A stretch of 32,000 nucleotides of DNA from Thermodesulfobacteriota bacterium (GCA_026625185.1 CP113000.1:1995622-2027621), one strand, 5' to 3'; positions 14,600-30,461 are shown, numbered from the stretch's first letter. A program made the numbers and translations. The notes: generated by a model from the sequence alone, not told the origin.

Positions 14600-16288
14600 A
14601 TGTCGTGGAAGTTAAAGGAGAAGGCCAGGGCCCTCCTGGCACAGGAACAAGGAACGATTGTTAAGCCCTCGGGGGGGAAGCTCTCCCTTGCCCTGGTTTT
14701 TCCCAACTATTACCATGTGGGAATGGCCAACCTGGGTTTTCAATCCGTTTATCGGATCATCAATGAGCTTCCCCAGGCAGTGTGCGAACGGGCGTTTCTT
14801 CCCGAACGAGCGGACATTCTGGAGTTTCAACGTTCTGCGACGCCCTTTTTTTCCCTCGAAACCCAGAAATCCCTCCAAGATTTCGATCTCATCGCATTTT
14901 CTCTTTCCTTTGAAAATGACTATCCCCATGTTTTAACCATCCTTGATTTAGCGCGGCTTCCTCTTCGCGCTTCGCAGCGCAAAGAAGGCTACCCGATGGT
15001 ATGTGCCGGAGGCGTTGCCGCCTTCCTTAACCCGGAGCCGCTGGCAGAATTCATGGACTTCTTTGCTCTCGGTGAAGCCGAAGAACTTTTACCGGAAACC
15101 CTTTCCTTGATTTTTAAACTCAAGAGCAAAGGGGTTCTGCGCCGTGATCTTTTAACCCGCCTTACCGCGGTTGGCGGTATTTACGTTCCCCGATTTTATT
15201 CCGTTACCTACCAGGAAAACGGACAAATTGCTGAGGTTCTTCCCCGGAAAGGAATCCCACCCATTGTCAAGCGACGCTGGGTCAAAAACGTGGATGACTA
15301 CCCGACCCAGTCCGTCATCCATGCTCCGGGGATAGAGTTCGGCGGGATGTTTCTGGTGGAAATCGGCCGGGGCTGTTCGTTTGGCTGCCGGTTCTGCGCT
15401 GCCGGATGGGTCTATCGGCCGGTGCGGATGAGGTCATTGGGCGCGATTGAAAAATCTATTCAGAGCGCTCTACGCGGTGAGAAAAAGATCGGCTTGATCA
15501 GTGCGGCGATTGGGGACCACCCTCAGCTCAAAGACATCTGCTATCACCTAAGAGCCGCGGGAGGAAAGCTTTCGGTATCTTCGCTGAGGGCTAATGTCAT
15601 AACCCGGGATATTTTGCAAGCATTAAAAGAAAGTGGTCACCAGTCAATCACTATGGCTCCGGAAACTGGTTCGGAGCGGCTCCGTCGTCTGATCAAAAAA
15701 AATATTACGGATGAAGAGATTTTTGAAGCCGTGGAGATGGTGGTTGCCAGCGGCATCCCGAACCTCCGTCTTTATTTTCTGGTCGGTCTTCCTTCGGAGG
15801 CCATGGAGGACATTGAGCAGATAGTCTCGCTGACGAAACAAATAAAACATGTTATCATCAAAAGCATTAAGAAAAAAAATCTACCGGGCACGATTAACTT
15901 AAGCCTTTCTCCTTTTGTTCCCAAGCCGTTTACCCCGTTTCAGTGGGTTCCGTTTGAGGACCTCAAACTTTTGCAGCACAAGATTAAACACATCCAGAAT
16001 GGTCTCAAGAATGAGCGCCAGGTCACGATCACCCATGACCTTCCCAAATGGAGCTACATTCAGGCTCTCTTGAGCAGAGGTGACCGGCGAGTAAGCAAGA
16101 TCCTTTTCCAGGTGCATAAGGATAACGGTGACTGGAACAAAGCCCTGCAGGAAACCGACGTCAACCCTGACTTTTACGTTTATCGCTTTCGTGAGCTTAC
16201 CGAGATCCTCCCCTGGGATTTTATTGACCAGGGCATTAAAAAAGAAACACTCATCTCCGAATATCACCGTGCTTTAACGCACGGGTAA
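14600..16288 (+). CDS. radical SAM protein (562 aa; resembles the uncharacterised TIGR03960-type family from memory)
   Basis: CxxxCxxC cluster motif in GRGCSFGCRFCAAGW. The N-terminal LALVFPNYYHVGMANLGFQSVY matches what I recall of TIGR03960-type proteins. No SPASM-like Cys cluster. Confidence 0.85.
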   Translation: MSWKLKEKARALLAQEQGTIVKPSGGKLSLALVFPNYYHVGMANLGFQSVYRIINELPQAVCERAFLPERADILEFQRSATPFFSLETQKSLQDFDLIAFSLSFENDYPHVLTILDLARLPLRASQRKEGYPMVCAGGVAAFLNPEPLAEFMDFFALGEAEELLPETLSLIFKLKSKGVLRRDLLTRLTAVGGIYVPRFYSVTYQENGQIAEVLPRKGIPPIVKRRWVKNVDDYPTQSVIHAPGIEFGGMFLVEIGRGCSFGCRFCAAGWVYRPVRMRSLGAIEKSIQSALRGEKKIGLISAAIGDHPQLKDICYHLRAAGGKLSVSSLRANVITRDILQALKESGHQSITMAPETGSERLRRLIKKNITDEEIFEAVEMVVASGIPNLRLYFLVGLPSEAMEDIEQIVSLTKQIKHVIIKSIKKKNLPGTINLSLSPFVPKPFTPFQWVPFEDLKLLQHKIKHIQNGLKNERQVTITHDLPKWSYIQALLSRGDRRVSKILFQVHKDNGDWNKALQETDVNPDFYVYRFRELTEILPWDFIDQGIKKETLISEYHRALTHG

Positions 16289-16392
16289 TACCAAGTCGCT
16301 TTTATTTGCTTATCTTTGTTGTCTCCTCGTCATACTCCTCGACGTCGATTCCTTGTCGTCGCCTCGATCTGCTTTTGAATGTAACTTGGTAT
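16288..16392. repeat. repeat copy A (105 nt) with 9-bp perfect terminal inverted repeats
   Basis: Starts on the last base of the TAA stop. Termini are ATACCAAGT ... ACTTGGTAT. The top strand is pyrimidine-rich. It is homologous to copy B (46/54 identical over the first 54 nt). Confidence 0.75.
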
Positions 16393-16433
16393 AAGTCAGT
16401 TCCGCAGCCGGAAATAAGGGGAAAAATATCTCT

Positions 16434-18335: not shown

Positions 18336-18494
18336 ATGGCTAAACCAAACTACAAATTCGCGAAGCGTCAAAGAGATCTCGCCAAGAAACAGAAGAAAGA
18401 GGAGAAGCGGCAGCGTAAGGCCAGTGAACAGAGCGAACGGTCTCCGGAGGATCCTACTCAGCCGCCCGTCGAGAGTGACGTTGTTGAAAAATAA
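18336..18494 (+). CDS. hypothetical small basic protein (52 aa, Lys/Arg/Glu-rich); not in the ORF track (<60 aa)
   Basis: ATG 18336 with AGGAG (18326-18330) 5 nt upstream. My translation is MAKPNYKFAKRQRDLAKKQKKEEKRQRKASEQSERSPEDPTQPPVESDVVEK. A 32-nt perfect palindrome follows the stop. Confidence 0.55.
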   Translation: MAKPNYKFAKRQRDLAKKQKKEEKRQRKASEQSERSPEDPTQPPVESDVVEK

Positions 18495-18681: not shown

Positions 18682-18820
18682 AAATTGAGTCTAAATTTGC
18701 CAAGCTCCTCAGAGTTTATGCAAAGAAAAAATTCAGGATATGTGCGCGATAGAATGTTGCATTGTTTTGTGAATTGTCGTTCGGTGTGGAGGGGGCGGAC
18801 ATGATGAAAAATTTGACAGA

Positions 18821-18841
18821 GTGCCAATTAATGATTGGCAC
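18821..18841 (-). terminator. candidate terminator hairpin after the MBL gene
   Basis: GTGCCAAT-taatg-ATTGGCAC (8-bp perfect stem) lies 3 nt past the MBL stop. On the minus strand a T-run (ATTTTT) follows only after 9 nt. Confidence 0.35.
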
Positions 18842-18843
18842 TG

Positions 18844-19812
18844 CTACTTTCCCCTGGAAAAATAATAGTCCTTTTCTCCCTTCTCCTCCCATTCAACCAT
18901 CCCTTTCTCCTTCAAAATTTCCAAGATTCCAAGGATCTTGTATAATCCAAAAATCTTGAAAAGAAGGGATGCATCAGGGAAAAGCTCCCTTACTATTTCA
19001 AAAGGTGTTTTCCTTTCTGAGAGAGACAGAGATACACGATTGATAAGATTCTGGTAATAATCAAAGATGCCTACTATTAATTTTTTAACATCACAAATTT
19101 CTTCTCCATGACCTGGGAAAGCCGTTGAAATATCCAGCTGTTCTATCTTTTTCAAGGATGCTAAGTACTCCTTAAGACCCATATAATGGAAGGGGGGGGA
19201 GCTCCCCACAACGTGCATATCTGGAAAAGGTACCTCATTTTTGATAAGGTGGTCACCTGAAAATAAAATTTTTTCTTTTTGCAGGTAAAAGCAGAGGTGG
19301 CCCGGGGTGTGTCCAGGCGTGTGAATTACTTTTAACATTGTGGATTCAAAAGGTATAACCTCACCTTCCTCTAAGAAAAGGACATCCTCAAGATTATCGG
19401 CAAAGCCCATGGCGGAGATGGCAAGCTTTTCTATGGCATCTACCATGGTTTCTGGACCTCCATTTCTCAAAAAGACATGCCTTCTGAAATCTAAAGAATT
19501 TATGATCCGCTGGAGACCTCCCTGTTCTTCCCTATGAACATACATAGGAGCAGAAGATATAGAAGAAAGCCTCTTTGCGAGGCCATAATGGTCTATATGG
19601 CCGTGGGTGACGAGTATCCTTTCAATAGCAGTAAGGTCGAGACCATAGGCTTTAAGGCCATTTCTCAATGCATCAATAGAGGGTTCGCTTTTGATCCCGG
19701 TATCGATAAGGGTCCGTGGGGGCTCATTGATAAAATATACGTTGATGACACTTGGCTCAGCTTGAGCTGGGGTGTTCTGAAGGCTAATTTTAAATATCTT
19801 ATCGATGAGCAA
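18844..19812 (-). CDS. MBL-fold metallo-hydrolase
   Basis: HxHxDH motif (THGHIDHYG), later HTPGHTPGH and SGDH. TTG start with GGAG 11 nt upstream. Confidence 0.87.
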   Translation of the reverse strand: MLIDKIFKISLQNTPAQAEPSVINVYFINEPPRTLIDTGIKSEPSIDALRNGLKAYGLDLTAIERILVTHGHIDHYGLAKRLSSISSAPMYVHREEQGGLQRIINSLDFRRHVFLRNGGPETMVDAIEKLAISAMGFADNLEDVLFLEEGEVIPFESTMLKVIHTPGHTPGHLCFYLQKEKILFSGDHLIKNEVPFPDMHVVGSSPPFHYMGLKEYLASLKKIEQLDISTAFPGHGEEICDVKKLIVGIFDYYQNLINRVSLSLSERKTPFEIVRELFPDASLLFKIFGLYKILGILEILKEKGMVEWEEKGEKDYYFSRGK

Positions 19813-20127
19813 AATTTATTCTCCGTTACTTTATTACGCTGATCTTAAACGTTTCGGAATTTGTATAACTCATTTAATTCTAATATTTTTTAACAACATC
19901 CTCCTTATACCATACAAATGGAATAATGAAATGTTGGGATAATCTTGGAATGATGAAAGAATGGTCAAAAACGCATAACTTCTATATCTGGATCAAGGGT
20001 TTTGGGATCAATTTTTACTATTCCTTCTTTCTGGTTGTAGTTATAGCTCTATATCTATTCCTAAAACTTATTGCCAGTTTCAAGGTGTCCGGTTAAAAGG
20101 GGGGCTACTTCATAAAGATGATGTTGA

Positions 20128-20250
20128 TTAGACGTGAAATTACAGGAATGGGAGAACTTTTATAACCTTCATCGTCCTCATCGGTTGCACAAAGGTAAAG
20201 GTCCATCTGAAGCCCTCTACGAGAAAATGAAAGCCTTTAAGGATGTTTGA
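20128..20250 (+). pseudogene. 3' fragment of an rve (DDE integrase-core) transposase, an IS scar
   Basis: Translates to LDVKLQEWENFYNLHRPHRLHKGKGPSEALYEKMKAFKDV*, the characteristic C-terminal ...W..FYN..RPH..L.GK.P... tail of IS3/IS481-type transposases. The frame is closed by stops immediately upstream. Confidence 0.6.
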
Positions 20251-20358
20251 CAACCGGTATAGTGGGCCTAACAATTCAGTAATTCTGTTTGATTACAAAT
20301 GGCCGGGTTTTATTTTACTGCCCCTTCAGCAATAAACGGTTTTTCCCTAATTTTCAAT

Positions 20359-21618
20359 CTAACCAGCTTGTACCCGTTGATAGTTTACGTTTTTCTCAAA
20401 GCCTTCAAATCTGAATAAGGGATCATCACAAGTTAATCTTTTTATGCAGTCAAGATGGAACCTGTTGTAAAATGTAGGGTGAAAGAAATCAGTCTCATAA
20501 TTATCAGGTGATACGATTCTGTTTTTGCCCTCATTTTGTAAAATGGAAGACGTTAAAGGGAGGTGCTTGAAAAGACGAATATAAAAATTCAAACCTACAA
20601 CCTTGGGACAAATTTCCCTGAAAAATTGGATATAGGTCTCAACTTGGGGCAACGAATCACCGGGGAAGCCAAATAAAAAGTCAATAGCCAGCTTAATATT
20701 ATACTTTTTTGAATATTCGTTAATCTTTCTTATTACGGCAAAATTCTTTTCCCTGTCCTCCAGAGTATCAACATTTAATGTAATCAGGTAGCACTTTGCC
20801 TCACTCATAAGTTTAATTAAATCCTCATTGAACAGATCGAGCTTCATATAACAGGCCCATTTTAAGGGAAGTTTTTCTTTTATAAGCCTTTTACAAAAGT
20901 TAACGCAATAAGAATAACGGATATTAAACTCACTGTCGCATATATGGAAGTGATTATATCCCTTTTTTACCAGGCAACTCAATTCCTCAATACATAAACT
21001 AATATTTTTCGCCCAATATGGCTTTTCTCTCTCCAAACAGTACGCACATTTTCTGGGGCAGCCTTTTTGCAGTTCAATCCCTAAAATACCGCAATTTTTC
21101 AGATACTTATCATAATCTATCAACTCGCCTCTCCTGTTGTGAGGCAGCCATTCAAAGCCATAATCCCACCCATTTATTAACCTGTAATTTACCTGCCCTT
21201 GCTCAAGATCTTTTAGAATTTTAAGCAAGGCGCCTTCTCCGGGACCAATAACGCCTATATCTCCCCCAAGGTAATTCAATATCTCCATAGGCATGGAAGA
21301 AAAGCCCTGGCCGCCTAAAATAACCGGCGAAGATGCATACTTCTTGATTATAGATATTATCTCATTATATTCCTTCAGAAAAAATTGATTATTAAAATAT
21401 ACGGTGGTATCGACATTCCTTATGGTAATGCCTATAATGTCATACTTCTCGCGCCTGAAAAATCGCCGGACATCATTTTCTACATTTTCACTAAAACACA
21501 AATCTAAAACCGAAACCTCATGCCCGCTTTCCCATAAATGGGTAGCAAGGTATTCAATGGCCATCGGTATCACGGGTGGCTTCTTATATCGATTTGGATT
21601 TACGAGAGCAATCTGCAT
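20359..21618 (-). CDS. radical SAM protein with N-terminal B12-binding-like domain (class B type, 419 aa)
   Basis: N-terminus MQIALVNPN...PMAIEYLATHL.ESGHEV.VLD is typical of cobalamin-binding-domain rSAMs. CxxxCxxC sits in QKGCPRKCAYC. The gene is markedly AT-rich. Confidence 0.85.
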   Translation of the reverse strand: MQIALVNPNRYKKPPVIPMAIEYLATHLWESGHEVSVLDLCFSENVENDVRRFFRREKYDIIGITIRNVDTTVYFNNQFFLKEYNEIISIIKKYASSPVILGGQGFSSMPMEILNYLGGDIGVIGPGEGALLKILKDLEQGQVNYRLINGWDYGFEWLPHNRRGELIDYDKYLKNCGILGIELQKGCPRKCAYCLEREKPYWAKNISLCIEELSCLVKKGYNHFHICDSEFNIRYSYCVNFCKRLIKEKLPLKWACYMKLDLFNEDLIKLMSEAKCYLITLNVDTLEDREKNFAVIRKINEYSKKYNIKLAIDFLFGFPGDSLPQVETYIQFFREICPKVVGLNFYIRLFKHLPLTSSILQNEGKNRIVSPDNYETDFFHPTFYNRFHLDCIKRLTCDDPLFRFEGFEKNVNYQRVQAG

Positions 21619-21703
21619 AAAGTTAACATACCTCCTTAATGTGGTATTTTCTATTTACTCGATTATCTAAAACTTCTACAATCTGCAATAAATATACCAA
21701 GTA

Positions 21704-23077
21704 CTATTCTACTCTTGCAAAATCCGCCAAAAAATGTCTGAGTGTTTTCGGCTCGTACGCAATTTTAAATCCCTTTACCTTATCTTTTTTTTTCGCCACG
21801 TGGATAACCCCCTCGGCAACGAAATCCATATGCCTGTAAGTATATACCCTGCGCGGAACCGCCAGCCTGGTCAATTCCAAACGCGGGTAGTCAGTCTTTC
21901 CGGTAATTTCATCTTTTTTGGCAAACGCAACGGAACCAATTTCAGCGGCCCTCACACCTGCCTCAATATACATTTCAACTACCAGGGTATAAGCCGGAAA
22001 CTGGCTCTGGGGTATACGAGGGAAAACGGACTTTGCATCAATGTATATCCCATGACCGCCCGGCGGCTGCACAATAGGGATGCCTGCATCATCCAGCTTT
22101 TTCCCTAAATAATTTACCTGATCGATTCTGTAAGCAAGATAATCTTCCTCTATGACCTCTTCCAAACCTCGTGCCAGCGCTTCCAGATCTCTTCCAGCCA
22201 TACCTCCATAGGTAATAAAACCTTCAAGCAGTATAAGCAATTCACAGCATTGTTCATACAATTTCTTGTCATTCAAAGCAATAAAGCCGCCGATATTAAC
22301 CAGACCGTCCTTTTTTGCACTCATAATGCATCCATCGGCGTACGAAAACATCTCTCGGACGATATCTTTTACTTCCTTCTCTCCATATCCCGGCTCCCGC
22401 AGCTTTATGAAGTAAGCGTTTTCAGCAAATCTGGCAGCATCTATATACAAGGGAATTCCAAATCCCGACAGCAATTTTCTCGTTCTTCTTAAGTTTTCCA
22501 TGGATACCGGCTGGCCGCCGATAGTGTTGTTGGTTACCGTCATTAAGAAAAACGGTATGTTATCTCGTTGACTTTTTATTAGATTTTCCAATTGTTCAAT
22601 ATTCACGTTTCCTTTAAAGGGGTGATATGTTTTGGGGTCATATGCTTCATCAAGCAATAAATTTACAGCCTTTCCCCCTTTATGTATAATATGAGCCTGC
22701 GTACTGTCGAAATGGGCATTGCCGGGTACAACATCACCCGGTTTAATTAATTGAGAAAAAAGTATGTTTTCCGCCGGCCTACCCTGATGCGTCGGAACCA
22801 CATATTCAAAACCGGTGATTTTTTTAATCACTCTCTCAAGGTTGAAAAAACTCTTGCTTCCGGCGTATGATTCATCGCCTTCCATAATACCCGCCCACTG
22901 GTGGTCGCTCATTGCCGAAGTTCCGCTGTCGGTCAGAAGATCTATGTAAACATCTTCCCCCTTTAAGCGGAATATATTGTAACGGGCTTCCTCCATTTTT
23001 TTTAGACGCTCGTTTTTGGAAATGAGTTTTATTGGCTCCACCACTTTAATTTTGAATGGTTCGACTTTGACCGTCAT
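21704..23077 (-). CDS. tnaA: tryptophanase / tyrosine phenol-lyase family PLP beta-eliminating lyase (specificity residues tryptophanase-like)
   Basis: Full-length similarity by eye to TnaA and TPL: DLLTDSGT.AMS, PTHQGR.AEN, ARFAENAYFIK, PLP-lysine motif SAKKDGLVNIGG, RLAVPRRVYT..HMD and YEPK.LRHF. ATG 23077 is preferred, because the predicted promoter -10 lies only 6 nt upstream of the track's GTG 23128. Confidence 0.9.
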   Translation of the reverse strand: MTVKVEPFKIKVVEPIKLISKNERLKKMEEARYNIFRLKGEDVYIDLLTDSGTSAMSDHQWAGIMEGDESYAGSKSFFNLERVIKKITGFEYVVPTHQGRPAENILFSQLIKPGDVVPGNAHFDSTQAHIIHKGGKAVNLLLDEAYDPKTYHPFKGNVNIEQLENLIKSQRDNIPFFLMTVTNNTIGGQPVSMENLRRTRKLLSGFGIPLYIDAARFAENAYFIKLREPGYGEKEVKDIVREMFSYADGCIMSAKKDGLVNIGGFIALNDKKLYEQCCELLILLEGFITYGGMAGRDLEALARGLEEVIEEDYLAYRIDQVNYLGKKLDDAGIPIVQPPGGHGIYIDAKSVFPRIPQSQFPAYTLVVEMYIEAGVRAAEIGSVAFAKKDEITGKTDYPRLELTRLAVPRRVYTYRHMDFVAEGVIHVAKKKDKVKGFKIAYEPKTLRHFLADFARVE

Positions 23078-23134
23078 TGAGCAAATTTCCCTTTTTTTGT
23101 TTCTTGCTGAAATTACAGCATTCTTCACTGTGGT

Positions 23135-23162
23135 AGTATACTCACTGTTTCTTATTTGTCAA
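23135..23162 (-). promoter_or_regulatory. candidate sigma70 promoter of the lyase-radical SAM pair
   Basis: On the minus strand: TTGACA (23162-23157), 16 nt spacer, TATACT (23140-23135). This leaves a ~50-nt leader to ATG 23077. Confidence 0.5.
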
Positions 23163-23583
23163 CCGAAATAAGCCGTCAATAATGATTTGACGAACTGCCG
23201 GGGTCAATGATAGAAACTTTGTATATTATATTCATCCCTTCAATTAAATTAAAGTCTTGCACTTTTTAATGTGGGTATAAAAAGGCTGTTAACCTATAAT
23301 TGGCTAAAGAAAGCGCACACTTACTCTAACCAAGAAAGGAAAACAGCCCATGAAAATCCAAAATATTTGCGAAAAGGAAAAGGTCGCCTTCCTTAACGTG
23401 TTTCCCACACCATTGCACCGCTTGATTGAACATCCTGTTCTTGAAAGGCATCTTTGGTTATCAAGGCATTGGAGATCTCGTAGGGAAGCACCTCCGGTGA
23501 AACTATTCAGTAGCCAGATGTGCGATCAATAACCCATTTACGAATCAATGTCTTGTGCTCAAAAGATATTTTAACATCTTGAC

Positions 23584-26316
23584 TTATTTTTTCTTCTTCG
23601 TCTTCTTCTCATTGGTAACTGCTGCCTGAGCCGCAGCCAGTCGGGCAATGGGTACGCGGAAAGGCGAACAGCTCACGTAGTTCATTCCCACCCGGTGGCA
23701 GAACTCGATGGACGAAGGGTCTCCCCCGTGTTCACCGCAGATACCAATCTTAAGATCCGGTTTTGTTGACCGCCCTTTTTTCACGCCCATGGCAACCAGC
23801 TCGCCGACACCTTCCTGATCCAGTATCTGAAACGGGTCATGGGGAAGGATATTTTTAGTTAAGTACTCAGGCAAAAACGAGCCGGTATCATCCCGGGAAA
23901 AGCCAATGGTCGTTTGGGTAAGGTCATTGGTTCCAAAAGAGAAAAACTCAGCTTGCTCAGCGATTTTGTCGGCAACCACACACGCTCGCGGAATCTCGAT
24001 CATGGTTCCGATCAGGTAAGGAAACTTTACCTTCATTTCTTTCTGAACTTCCAGGGCCACGCGGGCAACGATCGCTTTTTGATGCGCCAGTTCATTGACC
24101 GACCCAACCAGAGGGATCATGACTTCAGGAAAGACCTTGATTTTTTTTTGGGTGAGTGTAGCCGCGGCTTCAAAAATCGCCCGGGCCTGCATTTCGGAAA
24201 TCTCCGGATAAGTTATCCCCAGGCGGCAGCCACGATGGCCGAGCATGGGGTTAAGCTCATGGAGGTGAGCGATGCGGCTTTCTAATTTAGCCTTGGGTAC
24301 TTCCAGTTCCGCAGCCAGTTCAGTGATCTGTTCGTCATTGAGGCCGACAAACTCATGGAGCGGCGGATCGAGCAACCGGATAGTAACCGGAAGCCCTTTC
24401 ATGGCCTCAAAGATTCCAATGAAATCTTCCCGCTGGTAGGGGAGAAGTTTCATTATCGCTTTGCGGCGGCCTTCTTCGTTTTCCGCTACAATCATTTCGC
24501 GCATGGCTTTGATGCGCTCCGGATCAAAGAACATGTGCTCGGTCCGCGTAAGACCGATTCCTTCGGCTCCGAAGGACCGGGCAATCAAGGCATCCTGCGG
24601 GGTGTCGGCATTGGTGCGGATGCCAAGGGTTCGCACTTCATCCGCCCACTTCATAAGCTGCTTATACTTCTTATTTTGCTCCGGATCCGCCGGAAGCAAG
24701 GGAATCTGTCCCTGGTAAACAACGCCTTTGCTTCCATTAAGCGTTATCCAATCGCCTTCGCTGAGAGTATAATTTTCAACTGATATGGTTTTAGATTCCA
24801 GTTTTATATTCAAGGCCGAGCAGCCTACAATACAACATTTTCCCCAGCCGCGGGCAACCAGGGCTGCGTGGCTCGTCATACCGCCTTTGGCGGTTAAAAT
24901 CGCTTCGGCCGCGTGCATGCCATGGACATCTTCAGGAGAGGTCTCATTGCGGACCAGGATGACTTTTTCTCCTCGCTTGGCCCACTCTTCCGCATCATCG
25001 GCAGTGAAAACAATCTTGCCGGTTCCTGCGCCCGGACCGGCGGGAAGCCCTTTGGCGAGAACATGCCTCTGGGCCTCAGCTTTGGGATCAATCATGGGGT
25101 GGAGAAGTTCATCAATCTGCTGGGGTTTTACCCGCATGATAGCTTCCTTTTTAGAAATCAAACCCGCCTTGCACATATCCACTGCCATTTGGATTGCGGC
25201 GATCCCGTTGCGTTTGCCCACCCTTGTCTGGAGCATCCAGAGCCGTCCTTCCTGGATGGTAAACTCGATGTCCTGCATGTCGCGAAAGTGTTTTTCCAGT
25301 TTCAAACGAATGGTATTAAGGTCTTTGTAAACCCTGGGCATGGCTTCTTCGAGAGAAGGCAGGTGTTGCGTGGCTTCAGTCTTGCCTGCTTTATTGATCG
25401 GCAGAGGGGTTCTGATGCCGGCGACCACATCCTCGCCTTGAGCATTGGGGAGCCATTCGCCGTAAAATTTATTTTCTCCGGTAGCTGGATTGCGCGTAAA
25501 ACCGACACCGGTGGCGGAGGTTTCTCCGGTGTTGCCGAAGACCATTGACTGGACATTTACCGCGGTCCCCCAGTCGTCCGGGATTCCTTCGATCCTGCGG
25601 TAGCTTATGGCTCGTTTTCCGTTCCAGGACTGAAAAACTGCTCCAATGCCGCCCCAGAGCTGTTCGTAGGCATCATCCGGAAAAGGTTTTCCGATAACGT
25701 CGTTGATTTTTGTTTTGAAGATTTCGCACAGTTCTTTGAGATCATCAACCGTCAAGTCGGTATCCTGGGTAACGTTTCGTGCCTGTTTCATGTTTTCCAT
25801 GGCATGCTCTAACTGAAGGCGGATGCCCTTTCCTTCTTCAGGCTCCAGGCCGGCGGCTTTTTCCATGACCACATCCGCATACATCATCATCAGTCGGCGA
25901 TAGGCATCATAAACAAACCGCTCGTTATTGGTTTTGGCAATGAGACCGGGAATGGTCTTGCTGGTCAGCCCGACATTGAGAACCGTTTCCATCATCCCGG
26001 GCATGGAGCTTCGTGCACCCGAACGGACTGAGACCAGCAGGGGATCTTGGGCGTCACCGAAGTTTTTTCCCATCACTTTTTCCACCTTCGTGAGCGCGTT
26101 TTCCACGTCTTTTTTAAGCTCCGGAGGATATTTTTTATTGTTTTTATAGTAGGCAGTGCAAACTTCAGTTGTAATGGTAAACCCTGCGGGAACCGGTATT
26201 TTTAAATTGGTCATTTCCGCCAGATTGGCCCCCTTGCCCCCCAGGAGGTTTTTCATCTCCCCTTTTCCTTCAGCTTTCCCTGCTCCAAAGAAATAGACAT
26301 ATTTTTTCTTAGCCAT
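23584..26316 (-). CDS. ppdK: pyruvate, phosphate dikinase
   Basis: 910 aa. N-terminal ATP-grasp (GGKGANLAEM), phospho-histidine motif GGMTSHAALVARG and PEP-utilising C-terminal motif (GICGEHGGDP). Confidence 0.97.
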   Translation of the reverse strand: MAKKKYVYFFGAGKAEGKGEMKNLLGGKGANLAEMTNLKIPVPAGFTITTEVCTAYYKNNKKYPPELKKDVENALTKVEKVMGKNFGDAQDPLLVSVRSGARSSMPGMMETVLNVGLTSKTIPGLIAKTNNERFVYDAYRRLMMMYADVVMEKAAGLEPEEGKGIRLQLEHAMENMKQARNVTQDTDLTVDDLKELCEIFKTKINDVIGKPFPDDAYEQLWGGIGAVFQSWNGKRAISYRRIEGIPDDWGTAVNVQSMVFGNTGETSATGVGFTRNPATGENKFYGEWLPNAQGEDVVAGIRTPLPINKAGKTEATQHLPSLEEAMPRVYKDLNTIRLKLEKHFRDMQDIEFTIQEGRLWMLQTRVGKRNGIAAIQMAVDMCKAGLISKKEAIMRVKPQQIDELLHPMIDPKAEAQRHVLAKGLPAGPGAGTGKIVFTADDAEEWAKRGEKVILVRNETSPEDVHGMHAAEAILTAKGGMTSHAALVARGWGKCCIVGCSALNIKLESKTISVENYTLSEGDWITLNGSKGVVYQGQIPLLPADPEQNKKYKQLMKWADEVRTLGIRTNADTPQDALIARSFGAEGIGLTRTEHMFFDPERIKAMREMIVAENEEGRRKAIMKLLPYQREDFIGIFEAMKGLPVTIRLLDPPLHEFVGLNDEQITELAAELEVPKAKLESRIAHLHELNPMLGHRGCRLGITYPEISEMQARAIFEAAATLTQKKIKVFPEVMIPLVGSVNELAHQKAIVARVALEVQKEMKVKFPYLIGTMIEIPRACVVADKIAEQAEFFSFGTNDLTQTTIGFSRDDTGSFLPEYLTKNILPHDPFQILDQEGVGELVAMGVKKGRSTKPDLKIGICGEHGGDPSSIEFCHRVGMNYVSCSPFRVPIARLAAAQAAVTNEKKTKKKK

Positions 26317-28787: not shown

Positions 28788-30461
28788 ATGAAGGTCCTTC
28801 TTATTCAACCGCCTATCCAGGATTTTTACGGGACCGCGATACGGACCCAGCCGATCGGGCTGGCGTATCTTGCGGCTTCCCTTCAAGCCCACGGTCACGA
28901 GGTTGAAATCTTCGACTGCCGGGCGGGAAAGAAAAAGATGATTCCTATTCCGGCGGAACTTTCCTATCTTCTTAATTTTTATCCCTTTAATGATCAAAGC
29001 CCCTTTAAACTTTATTCCGGCTATTATCATTTTGGCCGAGGATGGGAAGAGATTAGAGAAAAAATTAAGGATTCTCGCGCTGATGTGTTTGGAATTTCTG
29101 CTTCCTTTAGCCCGTATCTTCGAGAGGCCTTGGAGGTTGCCCGGATAATTAAAGAATGGGATCAGAGGAAAATCGTGGTAATGGGAGGGGCTCACGTAAA
29201 CGGCGATCCTGAGGGAATGTTAAAAAATCCTTTTGTTGATTACCTTGTTTTAGGCGAGGGAGAAGTTCGGTTTTCAAAGCTTTTGGATCAGATTGAAAAA
29301 AAAGGAATAAAAAAAATTGGGGATTACGATGGGATCGGCTTCCGCATTAACGGCGAACTGCGGATTAATCCGGTGAAGACTTTTATTGGGGAACTTGACC
29401 TCCTTCCTTATCCGGCAAGGCAACTCCTAGATCCGGATTGCTACCGCATAAAAAGGAAACGATCAACCATGATCATAACCAGCCGGGGCTGTCCTCATGG
29501 ATGCGCCTACTGTTCAGCTCATCTGGTTATGGGCACTGCTTTTAGGAAACGGTCTCCTGAAAATATTATTCAAGAGATGAGGGAGTGCCGGGAAAAATTT
29601 GATATTCAAACTTTTGATATTGAAGATGATAATTTTACCTTTGATATTAAACGGGCAAAACAGCTGCTCGGCCTGATTATTGAAACTTTTGGGGAAGAGA
29701 CCCTTGAACTTTCCGCCATGAACGGGGTCTCTTTCGCGGCATTGGATGGGGAACTGCTCGGCTTGATGAAAAGAGCGGGCTTTAAAACAATCAACCTCTC
29801 GTTTGTGAGCGCCGATACTTTAACCAGGGAGAGAATGAAGCGGCCCAGCGGGTTAATCGATTTTGATTCAATTGTAAGTGAGGCAGGAAAGACAGGCTTA
29901 CAGGTTATTGGCTACGCGATATTAGGAATGCCCGGTCAAACCCTTTACGAGATGGTAGAAACAATCATCCACCTGATGGGGCAAAGGGTGCTTATCGGGC
30001 CGAGCATTTACTATCCTACTCCGGGTACTCCTCTTTTTGAGGTCTGTAAAAAAGAAGGCTTGCTTCCGCCGCATCCCCTTCAGTGGCGTTCCAGCGCTTT
30101 TCCCCTTGAGACAAAAGATTTCACCCGCCTTGATCTGGTAACCCTTTTCCGCCTCACCCGGGTGATTAATTTTATTAAAGGAAAGATGGCTGAGAAAGAA
30201 ATTGATGACGGAATGACAATGAAGGAGGTAGGACAATTTCTTGAAGATAGAAAAAAACTTAAACTTGTTTCAGGTGATAATTATAATCAGCCCTCCTGGA
30301 TGGATTTACTCCGGTTGCTTTTTAAGGAACAGTCTTTTTTTAGCCTGAAAAAGGTGTCAAAAGGAAATTTTCTCGTGAATAATGAAGAAACCTCAAAAAA
30401 AGTCTTGGATTGTTTTTTTGAGAAAGGGGGAAAAAGCCCAATTCTCAAGAATACGGTATAA
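28788..30461 (+). CDS. radical SAM protein with N-terminal B12-binding-like domain (557 aa)
   Basis: MKVLLIQPP...QPIGLAYLAASLQAHGHEVEIFD N-terminus, GGAH and CxxxCxxC in SRGCPHGCAYC, followed by IEDDNF. No obvious SD is present. Confidence 0.87.
   Translation: MKVLLIQPPIQDFYGTAIRTQPIGLAYLAASLQAHGHEVEIFDCRAGKKKMIPIPAELSYLLNFYPFNDQSPFKLYSGYYHFGRGWEEIREKIKDSRADVFGISASFSPYLREALEVARIIKEWDQRKIVVMGGAHVNGDPEGMLKNPFVDYLVLGEGEVRFSKLLDQIEKKGIKKIGDYDGIGFRINGELRINPVKTFIGELDLLPYPARQLLDPDCYRIKRKRSTMIITSRGCPHGCAYCSAHLVMGTAFRKRSPENIIQEMRECREKFDIQTFDIEDDNFTFDIKRAKQLLGLIIETFGEETLELSAMNGVSFAALDGELLGLMKRAGFKTINLSFVSADTLTRERMKRPSGLIDFDSIVSEAGKTGLQVIGYAILGMPGQTLYEMVETIIHLMGQRVLIGPSIYYPTPGTPLFEVCKKEGLLPPHPLQWRSSAFPLETKDFTRLDLVTLFRLTRVINFIKGKMAEKEIDDGMTMKEVGQFLEDRKKLKLVSGDNYNQPSWMDLLRLLFKEQSFFSLKKVSKGNFLVNNEETSKKVLDCFFEKGGKSPILKNTV

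Follow-up and report, generated by a model that had tools for sequence, protein, structure and literature searches.

A predicted tryptophanase and a TsrM-like protein of the radical-SAM fold are encoded side by side in the benzene fermenter ORM2a

We analyzed a 32,000-nucleotide stretch of the Thermodesulfobacteriota genome GCA_026625185.1 (CP113000.1:1995622-2027621; hereafter the window, with positions counted from its first letter). The genome is that of ORM2a ('Candidatus Anaerobenzenivorax'), which has been described as a benzene fermenter of the OR methanogenic consortium with a closed genome (PMC13101534). In the window, a gene for a pyridoxal 5'-phosphate (PLP)-dependent beta-eliminating lyase of the tryptophanase type is followed by a gene for a cobalamin-binding protein with a radical S-adenosylmethionine (SAM) fold, here called rSAM. 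We propose that the two genes may together constitute a unit that is specific to the genus and has tryptophan or indole as its substrate, a tentative reading that we hold at less than even confidence. The first gene would encode a tryptophanase that converts L-tryptophan into indole, pyruvate and ammonium with PLP bound to K256. The second would encode a TsrM-like cobalamin-dependent methyltransferase that entered the lineage by horizontal transfer.

Results

The rSAM protein matched the Pfam models B12-binding (50.9 bits) and Radical_SAM (37.7 bits). Its best NCBIfam scores were for TIGR04072 (173.8 bits, cut-off 360) and TsrM, TIGR04428 (169.8 bits, cut-off 500), both far below the cut-off, and the third-best match was BzaD (81.5 bits). 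As controls, a true TsrM (P0320) scored 844 bits and a true TIGR04072 member (P0296) scored 364 bits. The closest solved structure by sequence was the TsrM of Kitasatospora setae (KsTsrM, 6WTE/6WTF), with an E value of 2.5e-38 and about 22% identity. The AlphaFold model of rSAM, with a mean predicted local distance difference test score (pLDDT) of 91.4, matched the TsrM fold with template modeling (TM) scores of 0.82 to 0.89 (0.63 to 0.70 when normalised to TsrM) and an E value of 1e-27, while the next matches, OxsB, AprD4 and CysS, were found at about 1e-13. A preliminary description of the region had mentioned TsrM among the enzymes of this class, and the mention was apt, since TsrM is the closest solved relative by both sequence and fold and its catalytic motifs are conserved in rSAM.

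TsrM, the tryptophan 2-C-methyltransferase of thiostrepton biosynthesis, is built in the same way, with a cobalamin-binding Rossmann domain at the N terminus and then a radical-SAM barrel that carries a CX3CX2C motif. The two proteins also share a Gly-x-Thr-x-Arg loop, a Glu two residues past the last Cys, and an Asp-Ser-Glu motif. In rSAM, the motif G63-I-T65-I-R67 aligns with the TsrM loop GVTVR, so that R67 corresponds to Arg69. The cluster motif C187-x3-C191-x2-C194-x-E196, in which the cysteines are invariant in the family, places E196 at TsrM Glu236, and D228-S229-E230 corresponds to Asp271-Ser272-Glu273, with E230 predicted to ligate iron. When 85 family members were compared, Arg67 and Glu230 were each present in 85/85 and Glu196 in 76/85. 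In TsrM, Arg69 lies below the cobalt and keeps methylcobalamin five-coordinate (PMC9204698). Arg69, Glu236 and Glu273, the last of which ligates the unique iron, have been tied to the non-radical chemistry of the enzyme (PMC8992657, PMC9204698, PMC9692996), and TsrM is so far the sole cobalamin-dependent enzyme of the radical-SAM fold that has been shown to work without radicals (PMC9204698). The conserved residues suggest that the chemistry of rSAM could be non-radical as well.

The rSAM protein is, as far as its sequence indicates, TsrM-like yet not TsrM, and is a member of a family that has no name and whose proteins are about 420 residues long. Unlike TsrM, it is encoded outside any thiopeptide cluster, and its family is a separate one with most of its members in Asgard archaea and Nitrospirota. 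It has 419 residues compared with 575 in TsrM, and the alignment of the two ends at residue 360 of rSAM and about residue 424 of TsrM, leaving about 59 and about 150 residues, respectively. TIGR04072 is an uncharacterised family that was first linked to ladderane-type lipid clusters. It is likewise of similar length, with the same two domains and the arginine of the lower axial loop, and its hidden Markov model scores rSAM as highly as that of TsrM. In the bona fide member P0296, the arginine is kept and D-N-V replaces D-S-E. Because the true TIGR04072 protein has D-N-V, the rSAM family sides with TsrM on the D-S-E motif. The rSAM protein further differs from TIGR04072 in its score below the cut-off and in having no conserved lipid-gene context.

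Three class B enzymes that methylate aromatic sp2 carbons, BzaD, CloN6 and CouN6, belong to the same broad clade as rSAM. They are distant in sequence, act on other substrates (benzimidazole, pyrrole) and have no link to a beta-eliminating lyase. BzaD methylates an aromatic sp2 carbon of benzimidazole in the bza pathway. TsrM methylates an sp2 carbon of indole (PMC9692996), and a TsrM-like polar mechanism has been suggested for CloN6 and CouN6 (PMC9204698).

The lyase matched the Pfam model Beta_elim_lyase (PF01212) with 264 bits and passed the cut-off of the NCBIfam model NF009709 'tryptophanase' (672.7 bits, cut-off 285). Its scores were below the equivalog cut-offs of TIGR02617, the E. coli-type TnaA (509.2 versus 825.8 bits), and of NF053783 (626.4 versus 750 bits). 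Alignments to solved structures placed the PLP lysine, K256, in the motif MSAKKD. The specificity residues of tryptophanase are Asp137, Phe304, Val394, Ile396 and His463 (E. coli numbering), and their equivalents in tyrosine phenol-lyase are Thr124, Met288, Met379, Arg381 and Phe448 (PMC5805759). In structure alignments, the lyase has D124, F287, A378, I380 and H448 at these positions. Four of the five are of the tryptophanase type, and the fifth, Ala378, is neither the Val of tryptophanase nor the Met of the phenol-lyase. A tyrosine phenol-lyase, which would have meant phenol chemistry in a benzene degrader, is ruled out, since none of the five residues is of the phenol-lyase type and the score against TIGR02618 (612 bits) is below the cut-off of 720.7 bits. 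The lyase is thus a tryptophanase in its predicted activity. The nearest relatives outside the ORM2 lineage shared 67 to 69% identity with it, and those that are named are tryptophanases, one of them from a metagenome-assembled genome of Syntrophaceae. It is assigned to a divergent tryptophanase subfamily of the kind seen in Desulfobacterota and Syntrophia.

The open reading frames (ORFs) of the two genes were confirmed as co-directional, as the preliminary description had put them (Table 1). A longer form of the lyase would begin with a GTG start at 23128. The 85-nt spacer between the genes carries the Shine-Dalgarno sequence AAGGAGG that had been pointed out before, and its AGGAGG core was kept in two related contigs, L001 and L002. 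The near-consensus promoter TTGACA-16-TATACT was also recovered. It matched the consensus at 11 of 12 positions and was the sole match of this quality on the strand of the genes within 18700-23700, where two further 11/12 matches lay on the plus strand inside the genes. Promoter-like sites in this interval numbered 19, compared with 12.6 +/- 3.8 in shuffles. A weak promoter-like site (9/12) at 21720-21691 overlaps the lyase stop codon. In L001, the -35 hexamer of the promoter upstream of the lyase was kept and the -10 hexamer was weaker. No terminator-like site was found between the lyase and rSAM genes. With no terminator and a promoter upstream, it is plausible that the two genes are co-transcribed as a single unit, as had been suggested.

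We also agree with the preliminary description that the pair is not a classical tna operon. As in the E. coli operon (tnaC, tnaA, tnaB), the first gene encodes a tryptophanase with tryptophanase-type specificity residues. Unlike that operon, the pair has no leader peptide, permease or recognisable regulatory RNA. The leader after the promoter, about 50 nt, is too short for a tnaC-type peptide, and no permease gene was found adjoining the lyase gene. A riboswitch or attenuator in the lyase leader was rejected, since the region gave no Rfam match even at E<=1. The downstream gene encodes a B12/radical-SAM protein here and a transporter in the E. coli operon.

The rSAM gene had the lowest G+C content of 23 genes (0.374, compared with a mean of 0.465 and a standard deviation of 0.033 for the other 20). 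The gene had been called visibly AT-rich before, and the five 60-nt G+C counts given at the time (18, 19, 27, 32 and 25) were reproduced exactly. Its G+C content at third codon positions (0.402) was no outlier and lay within the range of other genes, so the AT-richness falls mostly on the first and second codon positions. The rSAM gene was also about 6 points below its flanks in L001 and L002 (0.378 versus 0.439 and 0.380 versus 0.444, respectively), whereas in 78 other family loci it matched its flanks (median G+C difference, -0.008). In a neighbor-joining tree without support values, the ORM2 branch was nearest to an Asgard clade with loci of 25 to 30% G+C. An AT-rich composition in the ORM2 lineage only, together with the nearest branch being Asgard, fits an old horizontal acquisition from an AT-rich donor that has been partly ameliorated, and the rSAM gene looks horizontally acquired. 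The preliminary description had treated the two genes together as an accessory module. The foreign appearance of the rSAM gene supports this view for one half of the pair, but the lyase gene (G+C, 0.434) has a composition and relatives typical of its neighborhood, so the pair would not be a single accessory unit.

The ratio of nonsynonymous to synonymous substitution rates (dN/dS) of the rSAM gene was 0.18 to 0.33, which indicates purifying selection and no decay. Between the window and L002, the synonymous rate (dS) was 0.69 for the lyase gene and 0.66 for the rSAM gene, the dN/dS values were 0.09 and 0.19, which places both genes under purifying selection, and the protein identities were 88% and 77%, respectively. 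Since the dS values are equal, both genes were present, and probably adjacent, in the common ancestor of the window and L002 lineages. The downstream neighbor of the pair is a gene of the metallo-beta-lactamase (MBL) fold in the window, L001 and a third contig, L087, and a MaoC-type gene in L002.

A profile search of 1.84 billion representative proteins returned roughly 25 to 30 clusters of the 420-residue type. The wider TsrM/TIGR04072 clade comprised 2,062 clusters at E<=1e-30, and most of the intervening clusters tested had no assigned family. In 185,579 species genomes, 353 relatives of rSAM were found. The best 80 of the 353 came from Asgard archaea, Thermodesulfovibrionales and other Nitrospirota, Bacteroidales, Latescibacterota, WOR-3, Planctomycetota, Chloroflexota, Actinomycetota and Gemmatimonadales, and none of these 80 was more than 46% identical to rSAM. 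No relative from outside the genus was above 47%.

Adjoining genes were clustered over 84 loci, a set that covers the best 80 of the 353 genome loci, and no neighbor gene was conserved across the whole family in these 84 loci. Conserved partners were considered as a clue to the substrate and gave only the lineage-specific Pterin_bind, FMN_red, UvrB, LeuB and LeuD, none of which is tied to tryptophan. A Pterin_bind gene encodes a methyl-tetrahydrofolate-methyltransferase-like protein of about 260 residues whose score of 28.6 bits passes the Pfam cut-off, and it extends into the beginning of the rSAM gene in 13 loci of Nitrospirota (L035, L036, L048, L051-L053, L059, L060, L062, L065, L072, L074 and L083). 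This arrangement hints at a possible methyl exchange between the corrinoid and a pterin or folate in these Nitrospirota. An FMN_red flavoprotein gene adjoins the rSAM gene in 12 Asgard loci, which fits the need of TsrM for a flavodoxin-type reductant (PMC9692996). The archaeal relative in L003 is near CarS-like lipid genes and an amine-oxidase/phytoene-desaturase-like gene.

The lyase was searched by tblastn against the 84 rSAM-family loci, with up to 8 kb on each side and many contigs shorter than that. A lyase gene was beside the rSAM gene only in the ORM2-type contigs L001 (rSAM identity, 96%) and L002 (77%), and L087 carries the same pair. A metagenome scan gave no new close relative, and a literature search returned no report linking TsrM-type enzymes and tryptophanase as a gene pair. 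On the lyase side, three close relatives on five contigs were sampled, and the lyase gene adjoins a gene for a TrpP-type tryptophan transporter on two of them, L090 and L091, which each carry P0074. The preliminary description had made recurrence of the two families in other genomes its own test, and outside one genus the outcome was negative. Because the pair was found only in ORM2-type contigs, it appears to be a novelty of one genus and not a recurrent module.

Discussion

In the proposed mechanism, the cobalamin of rSAM would be methylated by SAM and held five-coordinate by Arg67. The methylcobalamin would then serve as a methyl-cation donor and be attacked by an electron-rich sp2 carbon. 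Since the rSAM gene has been kept directly behind a tryptophanase gene, the indole ring would be the most likely nucleophile. Two orders can be envisaged: tryptophan may be methylated first, after which the lyase would free a methylindole, or the lyase may free indole, which rSAM would then methylate. With either order, tryptophan or indole would be the most likely substrate.

Several lines of evidence argue for a unit acting on tryptophan or indole. The two genes are on the same strand with a conserved Shine-Dalgarno sequence in a short spacer and no terminator, and the best promoter match precedes the lyase gene alone. The pair was retained while its flanks changed. There is also the coincidence that the closest characterised relative of rSAM, as judged from sequence and fold, uses the very substrate of the lyase. 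The tryptophanase-type residues of the lyase, the equal divergence of the two genes, the TsrM residues conserved across the rSAM family and the flavoprotein gene in the Asgard loci point the same way. Finally, both characterised families among the three best NCBIfam matches, TsrM and BzaD, methylate aromatic sp2 carbons.

Other observations weigh against it. The lyase gene was beside the rSAM gene in 0/82 other family loci within the same search range, and a gene of the rSAM family was found in 0/5 contigs of the three close lyase relatives. Since none of the 82 other loci has the lyase, the rSAM family works without a tryptophanase elsewhere, and the neighbors that are conserved in parts of the family, Pterin_bind in Nitrospirota and the flavoprotein in Asgard archaea, are unrelated to tryptophan. 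The promoter upstream of the lyase gene is not conserved in L002. The rSAM protein lacks most of the C-terminal domain of TsrM, which helps bind tryptophan and closes over it, and it scores equally well to the uncharacterised 'lipid biosynthesis' family TIGR04072 as to TsrM. The Glu of the D-S-E motif is common in radical SAM enzymes and is by itself no proof of non-radical chemistry (PMC8992657, PMC9692996); SAM is not cleaved even by TsrM carrying the E273A substitution (PMC9692996). Neither gene appears in the parts of the text and supplement of the ORM2a report that were examined, including the proteomics, an absence that is uninformative (PMC13101534).

An alternative of equal weight, which likewise falls somewhat short of an even chance, is that the two genes are neighbors by accident. 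The lyase would then be an ordinary tryptophanase that breaks tryptophan down to pyruvate or produces indole, and the acquired rSAM would be unrelated to it, keeping an Asgard/Nitrospirota-type role on a substrate unrelated to tryptophan, with read-through or a weak promoter of its own gene accounting for its expression. The failure of the pairing to recur on either side fits this explanation, as do the G+C content of the rSAM gene, which is below that of the flanks in the ORM2 lineage only, the low identity to relatives outside the genus, and the position of the ORM2 branch beside an AT-rich Asgard clade. The spot directly downstream, with an insertion sequence (IS) scar of the IS481 family and a polymorphic insertion resembling a miniature inverted-repeat transposable element (MITE), is prone to rearrangement. 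The relatives of the lyase are Desulfobacterota-type tryptophanases with adjoining tryptophan transporters, and the 9/12 site at the lyase stop codon could provide the weak promoter. On the other hand, it would be an unlikely coincidence for the class B family beside a tryptophanase to be the one nearest to the sole known tryptophan methylase, though TIGR04072 scores equally. The two genes also remained neighbors and diverged to the same dS, with a change in the gene that follows them, and the conserved Shine-Dalgarno sequence and the missing terminator fit co-expression.

The rSAM protein could instead be a classical radical class B methylase, or a radical SAM enzyme other than a methylase, acting on an unactivated carbon such as that of a lipid and unrelated to aromatic compounds. 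TIGR04072 is the nominal top NCBIfam match, the L003 relative is near lipid-type genes, and a MaoC/FAS1-type dehydratase gene follows the pair in L002. We nevertheless consider this improbable, because the TIGR04072 score is less than half of the cut-off, P0296 has D-N-V where rSAM and TsrM have D-S-E, and lipid genes are not conserved neighbors across the 84 loci.

The pair might also work in the opposite direction. Tryptophanase is reversible and catalyses beta-replacement. If rSAM methylated free indole, the lyase could run backwards or by beta-replacement to give a methylated tryptophan, with pyruvate and ammonium, or serine or cysteine, as co-substrates for the indole derivative. The lack of the C-terminal cap domain would suit a substrate as small as free indole. 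However, the tryptophan biosynthesis pathway of ORM2a is complete (PMC13101534), so the lyase is not needed for synthesis. Neither a peptide nor a natural-product cluster that would consume methyl-tryptophan is nearby, and the lyase-first gene order gives no support. We consider this direction quite improbable.

Methylation of benzene by the B12 enzyme is unsupported: a carbon nucleophile is required for chemistry of the TsrM type, and benzene provides none, and the relatives of rSAM occur in many lineages without a tie to benzene degradation. Benzene activation in ORM2a has been assigned to a different, highly expressed cluster, and no known hydrocarbon-activating genes were reported (PMC13101534). 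No link between the lyase-rSAM pair and benzene activation is supported.

A broader proposal, which we regard as rather unlikely, is that rSAM and its 420-residue relatives are non-radical TsrM-type methyltransferases of ordinary metabolism, and that in ORM2a rSAM was recruited to a place after a tryptophanase, where it serves to produce indole or tryptophan in methylated form. If this were true, they would be the first TsrM-type non-radical enzymes outside antibiotic biosynthesis, and the methylindole route would be one that has not been described so far. Since the compact family keeps the Arg and Glu residues of TsrM and has 353 relatives, carbon nucleophiles may receive methyl groups from methylcobalamin by polar transfer far more widely than in a single antibiotic pathway; the 353 relatives are in lineages where nothing suggests antibiotic biosynthesis. 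The ORM2a copy is the one case in which a genomic partner, the tryptophanase, names a candidate substrate class, and this opens the family to experiment. Indole chemistry encoded by the pair would be unexpected in ORM2a, which is specialised in benzene fermentation and has a sparse amino-acid metabolism.

Additional features of the region

Table 1. Features at and around the lyase-rSAM pair, in window coordinates
Feature	Position	Strand	Description
Lyase ORF	21704-23077	-	Tryptophanase-type PLP beta-eliminating lyase (predicted), 457 aa from ATG at 23077; by position OS130_09580
rSAM ORF	20359-21618	-	Protein of 419 aa with cobalamin-binding domain and radical-SAM fold, from an unnamed TsrM-like family; by position OS130_09575
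Spacer between lyase and rSAM	21619-21703	-	85 nt; Shine-Dalgarno AAGGAGG at 21637-21631; no terminator-like hairpin
Promoter-like site	23135-23162	-	Sigma-70-type TTGACA-16-TATACT, upstream of lyase; 11/12 matches
IS481-family transposase remnant	20105-20250	+	3' gene end, convergent with rSAM gene
MBL-fold metallo-hydrolase	18844-19812	-	322 aa; neighbor, membership in the pair unsupported

The pair is wedged between housekeeping blocks, as had been described. On one flank are the dcw cluster through ftsZ, a further radical SAM gene and a gene of the major facilitator superfamily (MFS); on the other are ppdK, glyS, glyQ and recO. The locus tags in Table 1 follow from position, since ppdK is OS130_09585 and the MFS gene is OS130_09555 in the ORM2a genome (PMC13101534). 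The ORM2a proteomics data list 23 spectra for ppdK (PMC13101534).

The transposase fragment reported downstream of the rSAM gene belongs to the IS481 family and has its own stop at 20250. It gave a weak rve_3 match (E=0.012) and, by tblastn, 50 to 66% identity to IS481 transposases with E values down to 5e-6. Only the last 40 to 48 codons or so of the IS481 gene remain, and the remnant falls short of an insertion sequence with terminal inverted repeats and an intact DDE transposase gene. The ORM2a pseudogene OS130_09570 (genome 2,015,726-2,015,871), with which it shares 100% identity, is annotated as 'IS481 family transposase, missing N-terminus' (PMC13101534). The same scar was found in L001 and L087.

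The MBL protein matched Lactamase_B with 112.8 bits, and no NCBIfam model passed its cut-off. It had been considered as a possible third member of the module. This is unsupported, given the 546-bp gap with the IS scar between the MBL gene and the pair and the replacement of the MBL gene by a MaoC-type gene in L002.

Between the rSAM_N2 gene and the MFS gene, at 16286-16394, the window contains a MITE-like element. It is about 105 bp long, has the terminal inverted repeats TACCAAGT...ACTTGGTA and is flanked by TTA. Copies in L001 (5138-5246) and L087 (3299-3414) are at the equivalent of window position 20270, just past the IS481 scar. Position 20270 of the window is an empty site for the element, and the insertion is polymorphic.

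The synteny of the window with L001 (6703 onward) and L087 (4871 onward) ends about 30 bp past the MBL gene, at about window position 18811. In L001 and L087, hisB-hisH-hisA-hisF come next after the MBL gene; the window has instead a stretch of about 1 kb that is free of long ORFs, and then the MFS gene and the end of the dcw cluster. From the comparison of these contigs, the break is attributed to a rearrangement between strains. The strain-specific stretch between the MFS and MBL genes contains, at 18336-18494 (+), a 52-codon ORF for a very basic Lys/Glu/Arg-rich peptide (MAKPNYKFAKRQRDLAKKQKKEEKRQRK...) that gave no Pfam or NCBIfam match.

L087 (JGI 3300015266) is 99 to 100% identical to the window through the lyase gene, and from the spacer on its rSAM and MBL genes are identical to those of L001. 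Either the locus is a genuine recombinant, or its assembly is a chimera of the two co-cultured ORM2 strains.

The intergenic region between ppdK and the lyase gene (23200-23580) is poorly conserved, at 59 to 66% identity to L001 with about 380 gapped columns, compared with 91 to 97% for the coding flanks, and a 41-codon ORF is located inside it at 23326-23451 (-).

Two more B12-type radical SAM genes are present in the window. One, at 14600-16288 (+), is directly 3' of ftsZ and encodes a TIGR03960-like protein (458 bits versus a cut-off of 462). The other, at 28788-30461 (+) between glyS and glyQ, encodes an unassigned protein of 557 aa whose best match is the Sden_1168 P-methyltransferase family (169 bits versus a cut-off of 575).

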